From Candidatus Aminicenantes bacterium (GTDB lineage: Bacteria > Acidobacteriota > Aminicenantia > Aminicenantales > Aminicenantaceae), in the NCBI GenBank assembly GCA_020348385.1, contig CP070750.1:942645-958520 (forward strand): a stretch of 15,876 nucleotides of DNA, given 5' to 3'. The number at the start of each line of letters is the position of its first letter. The first letter of the stretch is position 1. Below, in pieces: positions 983-10,200 of the stretch. Position numbers and translations under genes: made by a program. Below the pieces are notes generated by a model. The model worked only from the letters and a program-made list of their open reading frames with translations, was not told the origin of the DNA and ran no database searches.

Positions 983-1012
983 TTTATATCATGCACTGGA
1001 GATTTGGGTCAA
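983..1012 (-). promoter_or_regulatory. putative sigma70-type promoter for the Isf / FMN-reductase pair
   Basis: Minus strand reads TTGACC (1012-1007), an 18-nt spacer, then TGaTATAAA as an extended -10 (991-983). It lies in the 96-bp gap between the SPFH stop (1043) and the Isf start (946). Confidence 0.3.
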
Positions 1013-1042: not shown

Positions 1043-2206
1043 TTATTCTGTGATGTCCTCGCTTGCTTTTTTTTCTTCCGTATCCATGGCCGGATCCATA
1101 ACTTTGCCCTCGGTTGGCTTTTTATCTTCAGCTCCGGCTCGGCTTTCGCCCAGGATACGGTCAAAGGCAGTCAGGCCACCAAGGGCACCGAGACCCATTG
1201 TCTCGACTGCCGTGCTGGGAACAATAATCATGGACCCCTTCTGTTTGAGACCTTCAAATACCATGTTCATAGCTCTTAGGTGGAGGGCAGCTGGGTTATC
1301 CTTGTAGTGGACTGAGGCATCTGAAAATTTCTCGGCAATCTCAGTTTCGGCTTTGCTCAGGATGATGCGGGATTGGCGTTCGCGCTCGGCCTGGGCTTTT
1401 CGGCTCATGGCATCCTCCAACGCTTTGGGGATGATGATATCCCTGATCTCAACTGACTGAACCGTGATTCCCCAGGCATTCGTCTTGGCGTCCAGCACCT
1501 GCTGGATTTCTCCCCCCAGCTTGTCTCTGTGAGAAAGCATGTCACCGAGCTCATGCTTCCCGATAGCATCCCGCAGACCTGTCTGGGCAGAGAGAGATAC
1601 CGCATCCTTGAAATTCTCCACTTCCAGCACACTCTTCTCAGCGTCCCAGACCATCCAGAAGGCAATGGCATCGACATTTACCGGGACTGTGTCTTTGGTA
1701 AGAGTCGTTTCAGCCTTGAAGTCAGTGACTCGGATCCTCTGGTCCACGTAGTTAGCCACTTTGTCTATCACCGGAAGCAAGACGAAGAGGCCAGAACCAC
1801 GAAGGCCGCGGAACTTTCCAAAGCGTAGCATGACTGCTTTCTCCCACTGGTAGGCTATCTGAATACAGGGGGCAATAAGCCCTGCTGTCACAACCGAGAT
1901 CACCAGAATCCAGCTCTCTGGTCGATGGTTCAAATAAGCCCACAGTGCGGCCATGGTGGTGAAAACAAGTACCACCTCCCATATCTGAGAGACGCGGAAG
2001 AGTACTGACAAAACGAGAGCAATTCCCACCATAGTGATCACCACCTGCAGTCGGAACGGAAACACAGATAAATGGATTAAAAGTCCGAGAAGAAAGAGAG
2101 CCACAAGGATCATGATGTTTAGCGGGCCGAAACGGAAATCGGCATGAAAGCTTGTGGCAAAGCGCTCCAGAGCACCAAGTTTGTTACTACCTAATGATTT
2201 TTTCAT
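1043..2206 (-). CDS. SPFH/band-7 (stomatin/HflKC-like) domain protein with an unusual ~120-aa four-TM N-terminal extension
   Basis: 387 aa. Residues ~125-330 carry SPFH hallmarks: MLRFGKFRGL...VDAIAFWMVWDAEKSV...AQTGLRDAIGKHELGDMLSHRDKLGGEI...ITVQSVEIRDIIIPKALEDAMSRKAQAERERQSRIILSKAETEIAEKF. Ahead of that are four hydrophobic helices, then an acidic C-tail. AAGGAG lies 6 nt before the ATG, and only 14 nt separate it from the gntR stop. Confidence 0.85.
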   Translation of the reverse strand: MKKSLGSNKLGALERFATSFHADFRFGPLNIMILVALFLLGLLIHLSVFPFRLQVVITMVGIALVLSVLFRVSQIWEVVLVFTTMAALWAYLNHRPESWILVISVVTAGLIAPCIQIAYQWEKAVMLRFGKFRGLRGSGLFVLLPVIDKVANYVDQRIRVTDFKAETTLTKDTVPVNVDAIAFWMVWDAEKSVLEVENFKDAVSLSAQTGLRDAIGKHELGDMLSHRDKLGGEIQQVLDAKTNAWGITVQSVEIRDIIIPKALEDAMSRKAQAERERQSRIILSKAETEIAEKFSDASVHYKDNPAALHLRAMNMVFEGLKQKGSMIIVPSTAVETMGLGALGGLTAFDRILGESRAGAEDKKPTEGKVMDPAMDTEEKKASEDITE

Positions 2207-2220
2207 TTTTTTCTCCTTTC

Positions 2221-2598
2221 TCAGCGGTTTTTCCGCTGTTTGAGATTTTTCATAATGTCATCGAGGGTGAATCCATAGGAGGAGGCCCTCGAAATTAACT
2301 CCTGGCAGATCTGATCAAGCATGCGTTGTCTCTCCACATCATCCTGTTTCACTTTTCTGTGGCTGACAAATGTGCCCGATCCCATTTGGGTCTCAACTAA
2401 TCCCGTGAGTTCCAGCTCAGTATAAGCCCGGCTTACTGTGTTCGGATTGATGGAAAGCTCTACAGCAAGCTGGCGCACCGTGGGGAGCTTATGACCCGCC
2501 TCCACGGCGCCGGTTGCGATGGCGGTTTTCACCTGATCGATGATCTGTCTGTAAAAGGGAATACCACTTTTCATGTCCAGCAGGAAACTCATAGTCAT
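2221..2598 (-). CDS. GntR-family transcriptional regulator, short YtrA-like subtype (wHTH only, ~125 aa)
   Basis: IPFYRQIIDQVKTAIATGAVEAGHKLPTVRQLAVELSINPNTVSRAYTELELTGLVETQMGSGTFV is a canonical GntR winged HTH. The protein is too short for a UTRA or FCD effector domain. GAGAGGAAG RBS lies 4 nt before the ATG at 2598. Confidence 0.85.
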   Translation of the reverse strand: MTMSFLLDMKSGIPFYRQIIDQVKTAIATGAVEAGHKLPTVRQLAVELSINPNTVSRAYTELELTGLVETQMGSGTFVSHRKVKQDDVERQRMLDQICQELISRASSYGFTLDDIMKNLKQRKNR

Positions 2599-2634: not shown

Positions 2635-2666
2635 AATGTAATAATACATTAATACAAATTTGTCAA
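2635..2666 (-). promoter_or_regulatory. putative gntR-SPFH promoter with an embedded palindromic operator AATGTA-ATAA-TACATT
   Basis: Minus strand reads TTGACA (2666-2661), a 17-nt spacer, then TATTAC (2643-2638). A perfect 6-bp-arm inverted repeat AATGTA(2635-2640)-N4-TACATT(2645-2650) overlaps the spacer and -10, 37-52 nt upstream of the gntR ATG. Confidence 0.35.
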
Positions 2667-2740: not shown

Positions 2741-5700
2741 TTAGAACTTAAATTCTTTGTACTTCACCTTATGGAATAGCGAATAAAGAACAGGGACGAC
2801 GCCTAGAGTGAGCATGGTTGAGAAAAGCAATCCAAAAATGATCGCTATCGCCATCGGTTTCCACATAGGGCCTCCTCCTAACCATAGAGGAAGAAGACCT
2901 CCGACTGTCGTTGCTGTCGTGAGGAGGATGGGTCTGAGGCGACGTTGAGATGCTTCGACGACTGCCCGGGCCGGTTCCCACCCGTGTTCTTTGATCTCAT
3001 ATTTTATGCGATCAAGAAGCACGATGGCGTTATTGACGACAATGCCGGCAAGGGAAACCACCCCAAGAAGCGTCATGAATCCAAAATAAGAATTCGCTAT
3101 GAGCAGTCCAAAAACAACGCCGATGATCCCTAGAGGTATAGTGGTCAGTACGATTATCGGAAGCCGTATGGAGTTGAACTGGAGGACCAGCAGCAGAATA
3201 ATGATTAAGAAGCCTATCGGCATCTTCTCTCCGATAGATGCATTGGCCTCGCCAGAACTTTCTATTTCGCCGCCTAATTCATATTTGTATCCGACGTCCC
3301 ATGCTTGGCTTTCCACCTTAAGCCATTTATCCAGTTCCTGGCTGAGCGCGATTGGAAGAGTCCCAGGTAGTACCTCGGATTGAACGGTAACCGTTTTTAA
3401 CCGGGAACGCCGAAGGATTTTTGACGGTTGCCATTGAATCTCCAGGTCGGCCACCTGTTTTAAAGGGACGTTTCTCCCTGTCATCTGAGCGTACACATTG
3501 ACTGTTTCCAGCTTTCCGATGTCCTGACGTTCGGCCCCCTCTGAACGCATGGTTACAGGGATGGTTTTGTCTTCTTCTCTAAACTGGGTAACTTCGATTC
3601 CTGTCAGAGCTGTTTGCAATGAAATGGCGATATCTCGGTTTGTCACACCCGCACGGCGGGCACGGGCTTGATTGATCTTCACCAGAATTTTTTTAGTCCT
3701 CTGCCCCCAATCGTCTCGGATATTCTTGGTGCCTGGTATTGTCCTAAGCTTTGCTTTTACACTATCAGCCAGCTCGAACACTTTACCCAGTTCTTTACCG
3801 GAGACCCGGATTTCTACAGCGGCTGTCGGAGGGCCGTATAGGAGAAGATCAAGGCGGGTACGGAGTTCAGGGAATTTATTCATACAATATTCCTCTGTTT
3901 TTGCGATCAGAGAATCGATGATGGTGTTGGATGTTGTGTTAATAAGCATGGTCGCGTATTCAGGTTTCGCCGGTACTGGGCTGTAGGCGATATAAAAGCG
4001 CGGCGCACCCGCTCCGATATAAGTGGACCAGTTAACGATGCCCTCAGGACGATCGGGCCCGGCAGCCAGCTCGCGCTGCATGAACGCTTCGATGTCTTTG
4101 ACCACAGCTTCCATTTGATGGATGGGGGTTCCTTTGGGGAGTTCGAAATCCGCCGTGTAGATGGCTTTGTCATTCCTCGGAAAAAAGATGGCAGGGATGA
4201 ACATGAAACCCTGCATAGCAATGAAGAAAATGAAAACCACAGCGATTATTGATTTGACGGGATGGCGCAGCAACCGGAGTAAAAAATGTCGGTACCGCAC
4301 ATAAAAATTTGAGTCGTAATGCTCTTCTTTCTTTTTGACCTTTACAAAATACACACAAAACAGAGGGGTAATGGCCTCGGATAAGAACCAGGAACACAGT
4401 AGGGTAATGGTGACCACTTTGAACAGCGGTCCTATGTATTCACCCATGTTCGATTCTGCCAGATAAAAGGGAAGGAAGGCCGCAGCCGTGGTGAGAGACC
4501 CGATCAACAGGGGAACACGGAGTTCTGTCGCCGAACTGATGGCTGCTTCTTTTGCCGGTACTCCGGCTTTGATCTGGACCATTATCGATTCTGACATCAC
4601 GATCGCGTTATCTACCAGTAATCCCAGGGCTATGATAAGGGCAACTAGGGACATCTGATCGAGGCCAATGTTGAGGAAAGACATGATCAAGAGGCTCATG
4701 ATCATGGTCATCGGGACCAGGGATGCTACGACCAAACCTGTGCGAATCCCTAGGGTCAGAAGCATAACCAGAATGACAATGGCGATGGCTTGGAAGAGAT
4801 TGTTTGTGAAATTACTCACAGCGCGATCGACATGCTCCGGTTGGAATGCCACGGTATCGAATTCGATCCCTATGGGATACAGGCTTTGCAATCGACTCAT
4901 CAGCTCACTGACCTCTTCCCCGAGAACGATGATATTTCCTTTTTCTCGCAAATTGATGGCCAGAGCCAGTGCGGGTATTCCCGAGGAATGGACGATGGAC
5001 TGTGGAGGATCGATATATCCTCTGTAAACTTCGGCAAGATCCTCGACATAGATCAAATCTGTTCTTCCCGGAATGCTGATCAGAGTATGCTTCAAATCCT
5101 CGACCGATTCAAAACTGCCTGTCGGCTCCAGCACGATCTTTTCTTTTCCAGTGCTGACATCTCCCCCAGGGATGACAATGTTCTGGCTCTGCAATATGTT
5201 GATGAGCTGGGAGGCTGAAAGTCCCACTTCAGCCAGGCGGGCATCGTTGTATTCAACGAATATCCGTTCATCCTGTGCCCCGTGGATCTCGACTTTGGCA
5301 ACATCATCGATGAGCAGCATCTCATTTCGCACTTCATCAGCCACTTCTTTCAGCTGCGCATACGAGAATCCTTCCCCGGTGATCGTTATGATCGTGCCGA
5401 AAATATCGCCGAATTCGTCATTAACGAAAGGTCCGATCACACCCTCTGGCAGTTCTCCTTCGGCCTTTTCCACCTTCCGCCTCAGGCTATCCCAGATAGG
5501 GCGCATCTTTTTATAGCTTTGTTCGATGTTCACAAAAACGATTGAGACACCCGATCTGGATTCGCTGTTGATAAAATCAAGTTCCGGCATTTCCTGAATG
5601 GATTTCTCCAGCTTATCCGTGATCAGGGTTTCCACTCTTTCCGGGCTCGCTCCGGGAAAATAGGTCAACACCATGGCGGTACGGATAGTAAAGCCGGGAT

Positions 5701-5809
5701 CCTCGGCGCGGGGCATTCCTTGGAATGCCATGATACCGGCCAGGAGGGCAGCAAACAAAAGAACGAAAGTGACCCGGTTTTTTTCGATGGCGGTTTGTGT
5801 AATATTCAT
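2741..5809 (-). CDS. RND efflux transporter permease subunit (AcrB/HAE-type inner-membrane pump)
   Basis: About 1022 aa. Start refined to the internal ATG at 5809 (MNITQTAIEKNRVTFVLLFAALLAGIMAF is the typical RND N-terminus), preceded by GGAGAGGAAAG. The track's ATG at 5848 would overlap the adaptor gene by 23 nt and adds an atypical MVKRSSFRERKDP extension. The protein has two large periplasmic loops and twelve TM helices (e.g. NNAIVLLDRIKYE, GPMWKPMAIAIIFGLLFST). Confidence 0.9.
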   Translation of the reverse strand: MNITQTAIEKNRVTFVLLFAALLAGIMAFQGMPRAEDPGFTIRTAMVLTYFPGASPERVETLITDKLEKSIQEMPELDFINSESRSGVSIVFVNIEQSYKKMRPIWDSLRRKVEKAEGELPEGVIGPFVNDEFGDIFGTIITITGEGFSYAQLKEVADEVRNEMLLIDDVAKVEIHGAQDERIFVEYNDARLAEVGLSASQLINILQSQNIVIPGGDVSTGKEKIVLEPTGSFESVEDLKHTLISIPGRTDLIYVEDLAEVYRGYIDPPQSIVHSSGIPALALAINLREKGNIIVLGEEVSELMSRLQSLYPIGIEFDTVAFQPEHVDRAVSNFTNNLFQAIAIVILVMLLTLGIRTGLVVASLVPMTMIMSLLIMSFLNIGLDQMSLVALIIALGLLVDNAIVMSESIMVQIKAGVPAKEAAISSATELRVPLLIGSLTTAAAFLPFYLAESNMGEYIGPLFKVVTITLLCSWFLSEAITPLFCVYFVKVKKKEEHYDSNFYVRYRHFLLRLLRHPVKSIIAVVFIFFIAMQGFMFIPAIFFPRNDKAIYTADFELPKGTPIHQMEAVVKDIEAFMQRELAAGPDRPEGIVNWSTYIGAGAPRFYIAYSPVPAKPEYATMLINTTSNTIIDSLIAKTEEYCMNKFPELRTRLDLLLYGPPTAAVEIRVSGKELGKVFELADSVKAKLRTIPGTKNIRDDWGQRTKKILVKINQARARRAGVTNRDIAISLQTALTGIEVTQFREEDKTIPVTMRSEGAERQDIGKLETVNVYAQMTGRNVPLKQVADLEIQWQPSKILRRSRLKTVTVQSEVLPGTLPIALSQELDKWLKVESQAWDVGYKYELGGEIESSGEANASIGEKMPIGFLIIILLLVLQFNSIRLPIIVLTTIPLGIIGVVFGLLIANSYFGFMTLLGVVSLAGIVVNNAIVLLDRIKYEIKEHGWEPARAVVEASQRRLRPILLTTATTVGGLLPLWLGGGPMWKPMAIAIIFGLLFSTMLTLGVVPVLYSLFHKVKYKEFKF

Positions 5810-5825
5810 GGGATCTTTCCTCTCC

Positions 5826-6920
5826 CTAAAGCTTGACCTTTTGACCATCGGAAATATGGCTGATGCCGGCTGTTACGACCAGGTCCCCGTCTGCAAGGCC
5901 TTCAAATACCTCCAGTCCCTCTGCCGTCAACTCTCCGACATTGACCGGTTTACGTCTGATAATCCCGTAGCCTTCCTCCTCGGTGAGTCGTTCAACGATA
6001 AAAACAAACCGTCCTTCGCGATCTTCTCCTACTGCTTGAGAGGGGATGATGAACCTAACGCTCTCATCTTTCAGACTGAAGTGAAATTCAGCGGTCGCGA
6101 CCATCCCGGCACGGATATCCGGGTCCGGTTGACTCAGGAGTAAAGTGACTGGGAAAGTGGTAGCCATCCCAGTGGATTTAACGCCGATTTCGGAAACGGT
6201 TGCTTGGAATTCTTTATCGGGAACGGCATCAAATTTTACGGGAACATTTTTCTTTTCTTCTATAAGGGAGATTAAAATTTCTGGAATCGAGACTTTCACT
6301 TCGATGTGAGAACCCGATGTCAGCAGTATAATCGGCATGCCCACCTGAACGTTTTCGTTTACTTCAACATGAACCTCCGCAATCGCTCCGTTCAGCGGAG
6401 CTTTTATCTTTGTGTAATTCAACTGCATTTGAGCCAATTCCCGCATCTTTTCAAGTGTTTGAACGTTGGCGTTGGCCGCTTCGGATGCCATTCTGGCTGC
6501 ATCCAAATCGCTCAACGAAGTGCTCTTTTTCTCATAAAGCGTTCTTGTCCTTTCATAATTGACATCGGCATTTCGTGCCTGGGCTTTCCCCTGCAATAAT
6601 GCGGATTCGGCCTGCTGCAGTCTGAGTTCGTAATCGTTGGAGTCCAATTCGGCCAGGAGTTGGCCAGCTCTCACCCTGGACCCGACACGAACAGCAATAC
6701 CGCTTACCGTTCCCGGTACTTTGAAACTGAGATTCGATTCTGTGCCCGCCTGAGCCACGCCTGAAAATGTGCGAACATAACTCCCCTCTGCGGAAATAGC
6801 TTCTATGTATCGTACCGGCCGGATGATCTCCTGAATTTCTGCCTCCTCCTTGCAGGAAGAAAACAGCAAAACAGCTATTAAAATAGCAACACAAGGTTTA
6901 AGCAGATTGTTGACAGTCAT
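5826..6920 (-). CDS. RND efflux periplasmic adaptor (membrane-fusion protein, HlyD/AcrA family), probable lipoprotein
   Basis: 364 aa. Signal plus LLFSSC lipobox-like N-terminus, alpha-hairpin heptads (LELRLQQAESALLQGKAQARNADVNYERTRTLYEKK), and beta-barrel/MP domains. GGAGGA RBS. Sits 17 nt downstream of the outer-membrane factor and 16 nt upstream of the RND start. Confidence 0.9.
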   Translation of the reverse strand: MTVNNLLKPCVAILIAVLLFSSCKEEAEIQEIIRPVRYIEAISAEGSYVRTFSGVAQAGTESNLSFKVPGTVSGIAVRVGSRVRAGQLLAELDSNDYELRLQQAESALLQGKAQARNADVNYERTRTLYEKKSTSLSDLDAARMASEAANANVQTLEKMRELAQMQLNYTKIKAPLNGAIAEVHVEVNENVQVGMPIILLTSGSHIEVKVSIPEILISLIEEKKNVPVKFDAVPDKEFQATVSEIGVKSTGMATTFPVTLLLSQPDPDIRAGMVATAEFHFSLKDESVRFIIPSQAVGEDREGRFVFIVERLTEEEGYGIIRRKPVNVGELTAEGLEVFEGLADGDLVVTAGISHISDGQKVKL

Positions 6921-6937
6921 GATATCCTCCGATGTTT

Positions 6938-9340
6938 TTATTGCCTTTCTTCATATATTCCATACTTTTTATAAAAAGCTCTCATGCGCTCCAGAAGTGC
7001 TTGGCGTTCCTCGTTGTCCATAAAAAACTCGAATCTTCCTGTGGAACGTTCCATTTCCAGCAGATCGAGCAAGAAATCATACACGGCATTGGCTGCCGCT
7101 TGATCGGCATTGAATGCGGCGGTTTGAGCATCCAATAAACTGAGAATGGAAACAGCTCCTTGTGAATAAGCGTTTTGTACGATCTCTAAAGATTTATTGG
7201 CGGCGTCTGCAGCATCGCGTGCCTGTTCGATACCGACATAAGAGGATCCAGTCAAATAAATAGCTGAAAGAATACGCTGCTCGATCCTTTCGGTGATGGC
7301 TTGCTTCTGAAAATTCAGATAGTCCAGCTCTTTTTGTGCTTTTGTCCTCACAACGAGTTTCTCTCCCCCTTTGAACAAGGGGAAAAATAAGCTTAATCCA
7401 ATATTCCAGGAAGTGTTATCCATTTCGGGGAACGGGAATGATTGGGATAAACCAAAACCGGAGCTGGTGCCCGCTCCTCCCTTTGCAAAAATGTGCGATA
7501 CTTCGCCTTGAAGTGCCAAGGTCGGCAACCAAGAACTGTAGGATGCAGAGCGCAGGATCCTCTCTTGTGTTTCGATCGCAGCGTTCAACATCTCCAATTC
7601 AGGAGAGGCATTCAATCCTTCCTCCACCATAAACTTGCGGAAGACGTCCATTGACCGGATATTACCTGTTAATCTCAAAACTTCTTCGCTTGTGTAAAGA
7701 GCAAGATTACCCATTCCCACTTCAAGTGTGATGAATGGCTCATCTAAAGGCCTATGCAGGAGACGGTTGAGTTCGATTTCTGCCAGCATCCGCTGAGTAC
7801 TTACCTCCATGGAAGCTTTTTGGTTTGTCGCTAAAGCACTTTCCCATCGGTAGACCTCGGCAGGGCCTGCCATTCCTGTGGTTTCTCTTACGCGGGCTAT
7901 TTCCAGGTTAGTGCGTATTCTTTTTAAATTATCGCGTTGGATCTTCTCAAAAGTTTTAGCCCGGAGCACATTCAAGTACGCCGACGATGCAGCCAGAGTT
8001 ATGTCCAGCCGCAATTGCTCAAAATCCCATTCCCTGGATTTTTGAAGCGACTTTTGTATGGATAAATTGGCCCAAACCGGCTCAGAATAAATAACCTGGG
8101 TAGCCGAAACTGAGCCGGATAATGTGCGCTGTGCCTGGGAACCAAAGCTGGCTTCAGCCCTATCTTTGTCGATAACGATACCTGTCCCCAACAGGTCTAT
8201 TTGAGGAAGCAATTGTGATCGGGCTTGTCTGACATCCTGTGCGCCAGCAGACACAAATCTTTCTCTAGCGGCTAATTCTAGATTCATTTCGATGGCTTCT
8301 TGGACTGCTGAATTCAAACTGAGTTTTCGCTCCAAGTCTGTTAATTCTTCATTCAGCAATTCAGCCTTGATCAATACTCTCCAGGCAGGATAAACACCGA
8401 TTGCCCTTGCTGTCGCCATATTTATTTTTAACTGCTCTCCGATAGATATATCCACCGGTATGGAGCCTGGTTCTTCTCCCAACAGGATTCGTTGGATGTT
8501 CAGGGCCACTCTGCGAGCCACCTGTTGGGAAACGTCGGCAATCACAGAGGCCATGATCCCACGGTCCACATCATTGACATCGAACGACGCAAAACTTGGC
8601 AGTTTGCGTTTTATCAGTTCATCGATAAGTCGGGCAGAATCTGTCCTGGGTATTTGGAAGAGAGGCCCCAGAATCACAACTTCGATCTCAGGAGATAGTT
8701 GGGCTAGGGCAAAGTCGATGGATTTGCCCACGCCGATAACCTGCAGATCGATCCCAATTTTTTTCACCAAATTTGTGCCTCGGGTTCTGATCTCGGGGAT
8801 CGCCTTCAAATAGCTGGTATCGAATAGGTATGCTGCTTTCCTGAATTCAATGACCTCTAAAAAGGCCTGAACTTCTCTTATGGTCCTTTCCGGCATATTG
8901 ACATAATTGAGATTTTTCACACCGCTTGTTCCATCTTTATACGGAAATCCCATTAATCCCGCATCGAGAATCCAGGGAGCGATAACGGGTTTGGGCAGAC
9001 TTCCTCGGGTTGCTACATCATGGGAGGCTATGACTCCCATGGCAATGATTAAATCCACCTCTGGATCGGCAAGGAGTCTATTCATTCCGGCCTCAACTCC
9101 TTTGGCTGTCCAATCCGCCACAATGCGTTTATCTTCCGGGAACTGCACATCAAAATCTGCACGAGTGAGTTCAAGAATTTCATTCAACCAAAAAGACAGG
9201 TATTGCTCATTCAATTCATAGTACCCATCCAGCACCATTCCGATGCGCTTTACAGGAAGCTTTTCGGGCGTTTGAGGAAATCCCAGGCAGGTTATTATCA
9301 ATAAGGTAGTAAATAAACTAATATAACGTCGATAATTCAT
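6938..9340 (-). CDS. fusion protein: signal peptide + COG2984/PF04392-type periplasmic solute-binding domain + TolC-like outer membrane efflux protein (two OEP repeats)
   Basis: 800 aa in one uninterrupted frame. N-terminus MNYRRYISLFTTLLIITCLGF is a signal peptide. Residues ~30-330 match the ABC_sub_bind pattern (PKPVIAPWILDAGLMGFPY..GTSGVKNLNYV, LPSFASFDVNDVDRGIMASVIAD, GSIPVDISIGEQLKINMATARAIGVYPAWRVL). Residues ~335-800 carry two OEP repeats (LSLNSAVQEAIEMNLELAARE..; ..LPTLALQGEVS..; LSILSLLDAQTAAFNADQAAANAVYDF). There is no second signal peptide at the junction, so this is a true fusion rather than two genes. GGAGGA RBS 6 nt before the ATG. Confidence 0.8.
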   Translation of the reverse strand: MNYRRYISLFTTLLIITCLGFPQTPEKLPVKRIGMVLDGYYELNEQYLSFWLNEILELTRADFDVQFPEDKRIVADWTAKGVEAGMNRLLADPEVDLIIAMGVIASHDVATRGSLPKPVIAPWILDAGLMGFPYKDGTSGVKNLNYVNMPERTIREVQAFLEVIEFRKAAYLFDTSYLKAIPEIRTRGTNLVKKIGIDLQVIGVGKSIDFALAQLSPEIEVVILGPLFQIPRTDSARLIDELIKRKLPSFASFDVNDVDRGIMASVIADVSQQVARRVALNIQRILLGEEPGSIPVDISIGEQLKINMATARAIGVYPAWRVLIKAELLNEELTDLERKLSLNSAVQEAIEMNLELAARERFVSAGAQDVRQARSQLLPQIDLLGTGIVIDKDRAEASFGSQAQRTLSGSVSATQVIYSEPVWANLSIQKSLQKSREWDFEQLRLDITLAASSAYLNVLRAKTFEKIQRDNLKRIRTNLEIARVRETTGMAGPAEVYRWESALATNQKASMEVSTQRMLAEIELNRLLHRPLDEPFITLEVGMGNLALYTSEEVLRLTGNIRSMDVFRKFMVEEGLNASPELEMLNAAIETQERILRSASYSSWLPTLALQGEVSHIFAKGGAGTSSGFGLSQSFPFPEMDNTSWNIGLSLFFPLFKGGEKLVVRTKAQKELDYLNFQKQAITERIEQRILSAIYLTGSSYVGIEQARDAADAANKSLEIVQNAYSQGAVSILSLLDAQTAAFNADQAAANAVYDFLLDLLEMERSTGRFEFFMDNEERQALLERMRAFYKKYGIYEERQ

Positions 9341-9371
9341 TCTCTATCCTCCGAAATGTTTAGAGTATATC

Positions 9372-10133
9372 TCATTTCTTCAATGACTGTATTTCCCTTT
9401 TCAGATCCTCGATATCCTTCTCTATCTTTTTGGTGTCGGATCTCTTGATAAACTTTCCCACCAGGATCGCCACCAGGATGACCAGGTACAATTGACCGAA
9501 TATCACGAGGTAGGCCGAGATCGACCTGGCGATATCTGTAGCAGGTGTGATGTCCCCGTATCCCAGCGATGTCATCGTTATGATGCTGAAGTAATAGAAC
9601 GTGGTGGCGTAGTTGCCCATGCCTTCGGTCAGGGTAAAGGAGCCGGGATAGAATAATTCTAGGCTGCTGCAGATGGCAGCACCCACCACACCGATCAGGA
9701 GGAATCCCGCGATAGCTCCGAAAATGATATTGACGTTGATCTCCTTGCTGACAGCCACATTGTATATGATGACTCCGGTTGTATAGATGATGAACAACAG
9801 GTAGATGAAGCTTAAGGGCCAGATGTTGAATAAAAGGGAAGTCCAAACAGAGATCATCGAAATCCCTCCCCAGAGGAGACCGTTCCGAAGAGACCTCTTG
9901 TCTTTGCTAACGGCCAGGACACAGAATATCAGCAATAAGATCAGCATACCGCTGCCGAGGAAATTAGCTCCGGATAATCCCAACGATGTGTAAGTATGGT
10001 AGATGATATCCTGAACTATTATGAATAACACGATAAAGACGAACCGGTATTTGACTATCCATATCCATAATTTTTTGCCATCTGCCGCACCCTTATCCTT
10101 TTTTTCTTCGATGATGATTCCTTGCTTAGTCAT
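9372..10133 (-). CDS. potassium channel family protein (compact six-TM, no charged S4, C-terminal coiled coil)
   Basis: 253 aa. Pore helix plus selectivity filter YFSIITMTSLGYGDITP (TxGYGD), five predicted helices before it and one after, and a KIEKDIEDLKREIQSLKK tail. AAGGAG RBS 7 nt before the ATG at 10133. The stop lies only 31 nt upstream of the outer-membrane factor gene start. Confidence 0.8.
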   Translation of the reverse strand: MTKQGIIIEEKKDKGAADGKKLWIWIVKYRFVFIVLFIIVQDIIYHTYTSLGLSGANFLGSGMLILLLIFCVLAVSKDKRSLRNGLLWGGISMISVWTSLLFNIWPLSFIYLLFIIYTTGVIIYNVAVSKEINVNIIFGAIAGFLLIGVVGAAICSSLELFYPGSFTLTEGMGNYATTFYYFSIITMTSLGYGDITPATDIARSISAYLVIFGQLYLVILVAILVGKFIKRSDTKKIEKDIEDLKREIQSLKK

Positions 10134-10170
10134 CCCCTATCTCCTTAATGATCCCCTAATATCCCTCATT

Positions 10171-10200
10171 TGATTATCATAATCAATAAAACAAGGTCAA
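10171..10200 (-). promoter_or_regulatory. putative promoter of the K+ channel / efflux operon with an overlapping 7-1-7 inverted repeat (Fur-family-like box)
   Basis: Minus strand reads TTGACC (10200-10195), a 16-nt spacer, then GATAAT (10178-10173). The perfect palindrome TGATTAT-C-ATAATCA (10171-10185) covers the -10. It differs by one position per half-site from the 7-1-7 Fur box TGATAATnATTATCA. Confidence 0.4.

Follow-up and report, generated by a model that had tools for sequence, protein, structure and literature searches.

The efflux systems closest to the one considered here are MexJK and TriABC-OpmH of Pseudomonas aeruginosa, HAE-1 pumps of the resistance-nodulation-division (RND) type, and the closest K+ channels are prokaryotic ones with six transmembrane (6TM) helices and no voltage sensor, which have the pore of KcsA, MthK and NaK and the architecture of SthK and MlotiK1. 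In the literature searched, no member of the prokaryotic 6TM K+ channel families was found described within an efflux operon. Here, we analyzed a stretch of 15,876 nucleotides (nt) from a Candidatus Aminicenantes bacterium (GenBank assembly GCA_020348385.1, contig CP070750.1, positions 942,645 to 958,520 of the forward strand), called the window below, in which a gene for a small 6TM K+ channel precedes the genes of a three-part RND pump on the same strand. The arrangement makes it probable that the channel gene is the first cistron of the pump operon and is co-transcribed with it in this organism, and comparative genomics argues that the pairing of channel and RND pump is likely to be functional rather than accidental.

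As in MexJK and TriABC-OpmH, to which its permease is matched, the pump of the window has its adaptor and outer-membrane factor (OMF) encoded in the same unit. Unlike in those systems, the OMF gene stands first among the pump genes and a K+ channel gene heads the operon, the OMF has at its N-terminus a domain similar to periplasmic binding proteins (PBP-like), and the permease has Asp-Asn in transmembrane helix (TM) 4 and Asn in TM10, which differs from MexK and TriC. The channel shares with prokaryotic 6TM channels the TxGYGD filter, a glycine hinge 22 residues past it, the pore helix between two TM helices and the four extra N-terminal TM helices. However, it comprises only 253 amino acids and carries no cyclic-nucleotide-binding, RCK or other cytoplasmic sensor domain; its last element is one long helix that runs on from the inner helix, and its fourth helix shows no Arg/Lys ladder.

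Counter-ion conductances support electrogenic pumps, as in the case of the lysosomal V-ATPase with ClC-7 and TMEM175, and the glutathione-gated Kef systems use K+ efflux as a defence against toxic compounds. The window would resemble the first case if its passive channel dissipates the charge moved by the pump, and TMEM175 homologs do occur beside pump operons of this family (see below); the likeness would be one of function only, and an efflux pump consumes an ion gradient instead of building one. Such an arrangement is not known from bacterial efflux pumps. The Kef proteins are related to CPA2 antiporters and carry KTN domains, whereas the protein of the window is a P-loop channel with no CPA2 or KTN match in Pfam and NCBIfam. 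It is comparable in kind to Kch of Escherichia coli (PMC12669030) and MchK of Mycobacterium smegmatis (PMC9025972), inner-membrane K+ channels whose loss shifts the membrane potential, periplasmic ions and antibiotic susceptibility. Unlike the channel of the window, these are encoded by stand-alone genes in the respective studies and were not reported in a pump operon; Kch carries an RCK domain, and the effects of both channels were reported to act via porins or the general ion balance, not via an efflux pump. In the full-text literature searched, we encountered no account of a K+ channel or TMEM175 gene that belongs to an efflux operon or adjoins one. An earlier reading of this DNA from its letters (the original prediction) had noted that co-transcription of a K+ channel with a tripartite pump is not a standard arrangement. 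The parts of the locus are of known kinds, and their combination is new.

Judged by its sequence and predicted structure, the gene encodes a real P-loop K+ channel with six TM helices, a TxGYGD filter and a glycine hinge. The protein matches a hypothetical one from a Candidatus Aminicenantes metagenome-assembled genome at 100% identity, and both its length and the TSLGYGD filter, now placed at residues 188-194, were as originally predicted. This filter was invariant in all 16 orthologs of an alignment spanning 55-82% identity, as was G213, which lies 22 residues past G191 at the glycine-hinge position. By itself, the channel scored 22.2 bits against the Ion_trans_2 family (PF07885), for which the Pfam cut-off is 22.5; the precomputed annotation assigns PF07885 to it and to all its orthologs. 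Searching the PDB with a profile of the orthologs returned K+ channel pores, with Kv4.2 as the best match (E 5e-8) and further matches to K2P9, SthK, KcsA, NaK and MthK, while the N-terminal half had no match and no voltage-sensor domain was recognized. The AlphaFold2 model (pLDDT 90.4) predicts six TM helices along with a pore helix and one long helix at the C-terminus, the pore part being formed by helices 134-161, 175-188 and 200-252. A Foldseek search with this model gave only K+ channels, and the highest TM-scores were obtained for hERG, GORK, Eag and SthK, which are 6TM channels of the non-domain-swapped kind. Because the fourth helix (residues 105-128, IWPLSFIYLLFIIYTTGVIIYNVA) contains no basic residue and lacks the Arg or Lys at every third position, the channel is not of the voltage-sensor type; the four N-terminal helices are nevertheless strongly conserved among the 16 orthologs (C71, A74-S76, Y117, T118), with several invariant residues. 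Neither Pfam and NCBIfam nor the structural model gave a cytoplasmic ligand-binding or sensor domain or a KTN domain. In a profile search of a library of 1.84 billion representatives, the orthogroup proved to be a single cluster at 50% identity (433 bits), and the next scores fall to 192 bits. The cluster is a narrow clade of a large family of channels of about 220 amino acids (5,695 proteins at E up to 1e-10). Ten proteins of 414-476 amino acids matched the small-channel profile in two stretches (P0246, P0273, P0275, P0280, P0282, P0317, P0330, P0344, P0358 and P0375; P numbers are labels of proteins and L numbers those of comparison loci), which suggests tandem, two-pore prokaryotic versions of this small-channel family.

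The channel gene, the OMF gene, the adaptor gene and the RND gene form a row on the same strand, in which the junctions after the first are at most 17 nt long or overlapping (Table 1). The original prediction placed the end of the channel gene 31 nt before the OMF start and read nothing but a GGAGG ribosome-binding site in between, without a hairpin or promoter, and our measurements agree with it in both respects: a pattern scan detected no terminator-like and no sigma-70-like site in the gap, and the RNA fold of the gap with its flanks (-7.5 kcal/mol) was no better than that of shuffled sequences (z = +0.59). The element TTGACC-N16-GATAAT was the only promoter-like site on the minus strand near the channel gene that the pattern scan identified. 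The prediction of a sole convincing promoter at this place holds as far as the nearby region is concerned, but the site had been placed at 10171-10200 instead of 10173-10200. Taken alone, the site is weak evidence, because the generic count of promoters upstream of the channel (4 found vs. 4.5 expected) did not exceed that of shuffled sequences. The narrower pattern TTGACC-N16-GATA occurred twice in the window (987-1012 and 10175-10200, both on the minus strand), where 0.03 occurrences were expected. In both cases, it precedes the start of a minus-strand gene by about 40 nt, and it may reflect the promoter consensus of this organism. Moreover, the TTGACC-GATAAT element aligns with a counterpart that precedes the channel orthologs of L002 and L004. 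Because the gap is short and free of signals and the promoter-like element upstream is conserved, co-transcription is the simplest reading, and the earlier view that the channel heads the RND operon is further supported by the same gene order in two of the related lineages (see below).

The perfect palindrome TTGATTAT-G-ATAATCAA over the -10 hexamer is a candidate repressor operator, judged by its position; it was confined to the window, with no counterpart in L002 or L004. In these two relatives, the channel and OMF genes are farther apart, with a gap of 92 nt in L002 and 56 nt in L004 that holds an AT-rich palindrome, AAAATATAAGA-A-TCTTATAATTT, which includes TATAAT and occurs in one copy in L004 (2855-2877) and repeatedly in L002 (3170-3208), but is absent from the shorter gap of the window. 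A weak promoter-like site was called in the L002 gap, and no terminator-like site was present in the gaps of the window, L002 or L004. To see whether an insertion of the channel gene had separated the OMF gene from an ancestral pump promoter, we aligned the regions upstream of OMF in three channel-less operons (L093, L094, L097) with the regions upstream of the channel genes and observed no shared promoter block. An Rfam scan of the window, L002 and L004 returned nothing for the window and neither a riboswitch nor a leader ahead of the channel gene. Its only hits were two tandem full-length matches to the signal recognition particle RNA upstream of the channel gene of L004 (1151-1418 and 1532-1799, minus strand, 185.6 bits each), either a real duplication or an assembly artefact.

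Table 1. Coordinates of the features of the window and, in the last five lines, of TMEM175 homologs (positions within the respective comparison locus).
Feature	Position	Strand	Basis
K+ channel gene, 253 amino acids	9372-10133	-	open reading frame (ORF) list and identical protein match
AAGGAG ribosome-binding site of channel gene	10141-10146	-	
Selectivity filter T188-S-L-G-Y-G-D194	9552-9572	-	translation
Promoter-like TTGACC-16 nt-GATAAT, about 40 nt upstream of channel start codon	10173-10200	-	pattern scan
Perfect palindrome TTGATTAT-G-ATAATCAA, 8-nt arms, 1-nt spacer, overlapping the -10 hexamer	10170-10186		
Channel-OMF gap, 31 nt, with GGAGG at 9348-9352 (7 nt before OMF ATG at 9340)	9341-9371	-	
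Outer-membrane factor, 800 amino acids	6938-9340	-	OEP Pfam match, E 5e-40
N-terminal PBP-like domain of OMF, PF04392 (ABC_sub_bind), residues 86-326	8363-9085	-	
RND membrane-fusion (adaptor) protein, 364 amino acids, 17 nt after OMF	5826-6920	-	HlyD_D23, HlyD_3
RND permease ORF, 1035 amino acids, MexK/TriC-like	2741-5848	-	ACR_tran, E 1e-161, residues 17-1026
Promoter-like TTGACA (2661-2666) and perfect palindrome AATGTA-TTAT-TACATT (2635-2650)	2635-2666	-	sequence read
GntR regulator gene, short, after a 142-nt spacer downstream of pump genes	2221-2598	-	Pfam
SPFH gene	1043-2206	-	Pfam
TMEM175 homolog, L002	9942-10637		
TMEM175 homolog, L004	9592-10287		
TMEM175 homolog, L093	11066-11755	-	
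TMEM175 homolog, L094	11264-11950		
TMEM175 homolog, L092	1-216	-	

The surroundings of the channel gene were compared in 10 distinct ortholog contexts, including the window; the underlying scans of genomes and metagenomes relied on exact peptide patterns and returned few close orthologs. An RND gene was directly adjacent to the channel ortholog in seven of the ten contexts, in five arrangements and with three RND lineages. The order channel, OMF, membrane-fusion protein (MFP) and RND recurs in L002 (= L035) and in L004-L007, in both cases followed by a TMEM175 gene, so that the synteny proposed as a check is present in relatives. In L001, the channel gene faces the 3' end of an orthologous OMF-MFP-RND operon in convergent orientation, whereas in L003 (= L010), it is located between two RND genes with gaps of 34 and 106 nt. 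In L008, a gene for a cyclic-nucleotide-binding protein and the channel gene converge on an RND gene that has a second Ion_trans_2 gene in front of it, and in L092, a TMEM175 gene is divergent from the channel gene, after which comes an RND gene interrupted by a frameshift. The RND proteins fall into three lineages, namely type A, to which that of the window belongs, type B, which is about 25% identical to type A, and a third one represented by the L092 gene (36-38% identical to type B). Two of the loci have further peculiarities. The cyclic-nucleotide-binding protein of L008 is a stand-alone protein of 145 amino acids encoded at 102-539, 4 nt upstream of the channel ortholog (544-1335), and the pair resembles a split version of the MlotiK1/SthK channel type; the second Ion_trans_2 gene (4663-5373, minus strand) heads the RND gene. 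The region 6871-14846 of L003 shows the channel gene between two type-B RND genes with no adaptor or OMF gene nearby, and the RND genes are followed by a DUF6268 gene and then by a gene combining patatin, POTRA and Omp85 domains.

As a control, we inspected 62 loci with distant channel homologs, whose flanks of 587 kb together contained neither an RND nor a TMEM175 gene. An RND association of the wider channel family was rejected for these distant homologs from Acidobacteriota, Actinomycetota and other groups; the association is limited to the orthogroup, the second channel of L008 and the channels of Halieaceae described below. These data bear on the view that a separately expressed channel merely lies beside pump genes in one lineage, with synteny kept by descent and no functional link. 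The small size of the orthogroup, the related organisms from which the sampled contigs come, the generic promoter scan that did not exceed chance, and the lack of a 6TM channel gene in the closest channel-less pump ortholog examined (L093) would all fit such a view. Yet five arrangements with three RND lineages point to adjacency that was selected repeatedly rather than to a frozen synteny block, the control flanks contain no RND gene at all, the gap of 31 nt is devoid of signals, and both an unrelated K+ channel family and the independent case in Halieaceae show the same kind of association. We therefore regard an absence of any functional link as very unlikely.

Starting from the permease, we identified three further type-A operons. 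That of L093 (RND 89% identical) contains no 6TM channel gene but a convergent TMEM175 gene overlapping the 3' end of the RND gene; that of L094-L096 (RND 76%) has a TMEM175 gene after the RND gene on the same strand, and that of L097 (RND 71%) has neither K+ channel. Searches by tblastn established the absence of the 6TM channel from these three loci and of TMEM175 from the window. Among the seven distinct type-A operons, the 6TM channel is present in four, TMEM175 in four, both in two and none in one, and at least one K+ channel gene is present in six of the seven. TMEM175 adjoins the orthologous pump operon in L002, L004, L093 and L094-L096, and TMEM175 homologs occur beside this operon family or the 6TM channel in three orientations. 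The respective proteins are homologous to CmTMEM175 (5vre, E 4.9e-19) and human TMEM175; no physiological role of bacterial TMEM175 turned up in the literature searched. Because L093 has no 6TM channel gene, this channel is an optional accessory. Because two unrelated families occur at one operon in varying positions and orientations, the data point to selection for a K+ (cation) conductance together with the pump. The original prediction had considered a functional link between channel and efflux as conceivable, and this idea is strengthened by an adjacency that survives rearrangement and by TMEM175 either substituting for the channel or accompanying it.

The optional and interchangeable nature of channel and TMEM175 would also suit an add-on to a co-regulated stress response, in which the channel serves as a K+ release valve switched on together with the pump by toxic hydrophobic or electrophilic compounds, either by K+ efflux with H+ entry acidifying the cytoplasm and so protecting the cell, as in Kef, or by adjusting turgor after membrane damage. 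The Kef paradigm is established, the channel shares its promoter-like region with the pump, the palindrome specific to the window suggests control by a repressor, and a TetR gene lies divergent to the channel ortholog P0011. However, the channel bears neither a ligand-sensing nor a KTN domain and is not similar to Kef, and the loci share no conserved gene for a sensor or regulator. That the adjacency persists with the channel gene in opposite orientation and across three RND lineages agrees better with a link to RND function than with one shared regulator, and we consider a stress-response valve rather unlikely.

A separate case was encountered in Halieaceae (Gammaproteobacteria), where another small channel, with 29-39% identity across the pore half, directly follows a three-part system of the FUSC type. 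In L021 (4835-11527), the genes for FUSC, OMF and MFP are followed after a 13-nt gap by the channel gene and a gene for an AI-2E family transporter. The adaptor gene or the whole FUSC set is likewise found upstream of the channel in L016, L017, L019, L020, L024, L028, L057-L059, L070 and L071, while L049 and L052 contain only the pair of channel and AI-2E genes without efflux genes. As far as gene order tells, this linkage of channel and FUSC genes is an independent case.

The OMF of the window, originally predicted as such, has the TolC-like OEP part, but it is unusual in being fused to an N-terminal PBP-like domain, which the prediction did not include. This domain has a weak match to the PDB entry 3lkv, and the fusion is also present in L001, L002, L004, L093 and L097, which are all the orthologous operons examined. 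By analogy to E. coli Kch, which controls porin permeability, elevating periplasmic K+ and opening the porins (PMC12669030), the channel might raise the K+ concentration in the periplasm and thereby modulate the outer-membrane duct or the fused domain, whose conservation in all type-A operons examined would be in line with such a signal. Nothing ties PF04392 domains to K+ binding, however; the domain is present in the L097 operon, which is devoid of a K+ channel gene, and the channel also occurs beside RND genes with no OMF or adaptor gene nearby (L003, L008, L092). Signalling by periplasmic K+ is thus quite unlikely in our view.

The adaptor matched TIGR01730 (RND_mfp) with 246 bits against a cut-off of 95, and the closest solved structures to the permease, a full-length 12-TM protein of the AcrB/ACR_tran family, were MexK (E 7e-184) and TriC (6vej, E 1e-179), both over the full length; the permease stayed below every curated subfamily cut-off of NCBIfam. 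The NCBI model of the permease (P0121) comprises 1022 amino acids and starts at about 5809, some 13 codons later than the ORF. The permease family contains more than 120 clusters at ≥62% identity from Aminicenantes, KSB1, Latescibacteria, Zixibacteria, Krumholzibacteria and Gemmatimonadota. The full set of residues equivalent to Asp407, Asp408 and Lys940 of the AcrB proton relay is absent from the permease. Its TM4 reads LLVDNAIV, with Asp413-Asn414 (numbering of the 1035-residue ORF; nt 4607-4612) in place of the Asp-Asp of AcrB, MexK and TriC, and its TM10 reads GIVVNNAIV, where Asn939-Asn940 (nt 3029-3034) provide an Asn instead of the Arg of MexK and TriC, the Lys of MdtB or Lys940 of AcrB. 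This combination of Asp-Asn and Asn-Asn was present in 15 of 15 family members inspected from several phyla, and the unusual relay was rejected as a mark of channel-linked pumps, since all of these members carry it. The type-B RND proteins have Asp-Asp plus Asn-Asp. The coupling ion of the permease family may not follow the classical relay, as far as these residues tell.

Such a non-classical relay in the whole family, together with the different one of the type-B proteins, could mean that the channel or TMEM175 delivers or recycles a coupling cation at the pump, or acts as an accessory subunit with possible physical contact via its four-helix peripheral domain, which is strongly conserved in spite of lacking voltage-sensor charges. 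The relay variant does not track the channel, as it is also found in pumps without a channel gene. In addition, K+ cannot run downhill out through the channel and in through the pump at one potential, and the symmetries of a tetrameric channel and a trimeric pump do not match. A role in ion supply or as a subunit is most improbable on these grounds.

We favour the notion that the channel provides a counter-ion conductance for the pump. Transcription from the promoter-like site would yield a four-gene unit for the channel, the OMF with its PBP-like domain, the adaptor and the MexK/TriC-like permease. Turnover of the RND permease would move positive charge inward, either as H+ or as another cation, and K+ leaving via the co-expressed channel would balance this depolarizing current and keep the membrane potential close to the equilibrium potential of K+; the K+ gradient of the cell would in this way buffer the driving force for efflux. 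In the FUSC pumps of Halieaceae, the export of anions would represent an equivalent depolarizing charge movement. An electrical shunt of this kind would explain why two unrelated K+ channels are interchangeable, why they are associated with several RND lineages and a FUSC system, and why the orientation of the genes is irrelevant. In keeping with an electrical role, K+ channels were reported to alter membrane potential, ions and drug susceptibility, namely Kch in E. coli, where the ions concerned are periplasmic (PMC12669030), and MchK in M. smegmatis (PMC9025972). All four alternatives discussed above rank below the shunt.

Several observations weigh against these conclusions. No RND gene is present on the visible sides of L091, L036 and the contig of P0011, all of which are short or cut contigs, and the contexts represent a few metagenomic lineages that are related to one another and are thus only partly independent. 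Because the channel gene of L001 lies on the opposite strand, the conserved feature is adjacency, not co-transcription. The palindrome in the L002 and L004 gaps may be an internal promoter or operator, and because the gaps are longer and bear its TATAAT, the relatives may have an extra internal control point. The pump family dispenses with the 6TM channel in L093, despite the 89% identity of its RND protein, as well as in L094 and L097, and no K+ channel gene of any kind is found near the L097 operon. The coupling ion of the pump family is uncertain because of its non-canonical relay. A tetrameric channel does not have to interact with a trimeric pump, and a general K+ leak could in principle be provided by any channel encoded anywhere in the genome. 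Balancing of the pump current by K+ exit is accordingly offered as a tentative mechanism, and the explanation as a whole, combining the channel as first cistron, its functional pairing with the pump and the electrical mechanism, falls somewhat short of being probable.

The remaining features of the window lie around the operon. The TTGACA site and the palindrome located before the GntR gene (Table 1) would mark the 3' boundary of the pump operon. A role of GntR as regulator of the pump operon was unsupported, as the gene has its own promoter-like site and a palindrome unrelated to that of the channel promoter. Upstream of the channel gene, the genes for an MFS transporter and a TrmB regulator are transcribed divergently.

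Bacterial K+ channels serve as central structural models, whereas their physiological roles are largely unknown, and the same applies to bacterial TMEM175. The conserved genomic linkage between RND pumps and K+ channels of two unrelated families makes the role of bacterial K+ channels testable and points to charge compensation, which is rarely considered in the energetics of efflux. This result from the comparative genomics of uncultured lineages is unexpected for specialists of both efflux and ion channels, and the operon family offers two more oddities in one system, namely the fusion of OMF and PBP-like domain and the non-canonical ion relay. In the widest sense, taking in the small 6TM P-loop channel, bacterial TMEM175 and the small channel of Halieaceae, dedicated K+ conductances might be a recurrent accessory module of energy-dependent three-part pumps that acts as an electrical shunt, although this generalization is doubtful at present. 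If true, it would assign a concrete physiological role to prokaryotic K+ channels and bacterial TMEM175 and add a fourth functional component to efflux systems, and if general, resistance that is based on efflux might be weakened by targeting the K+ conductance.

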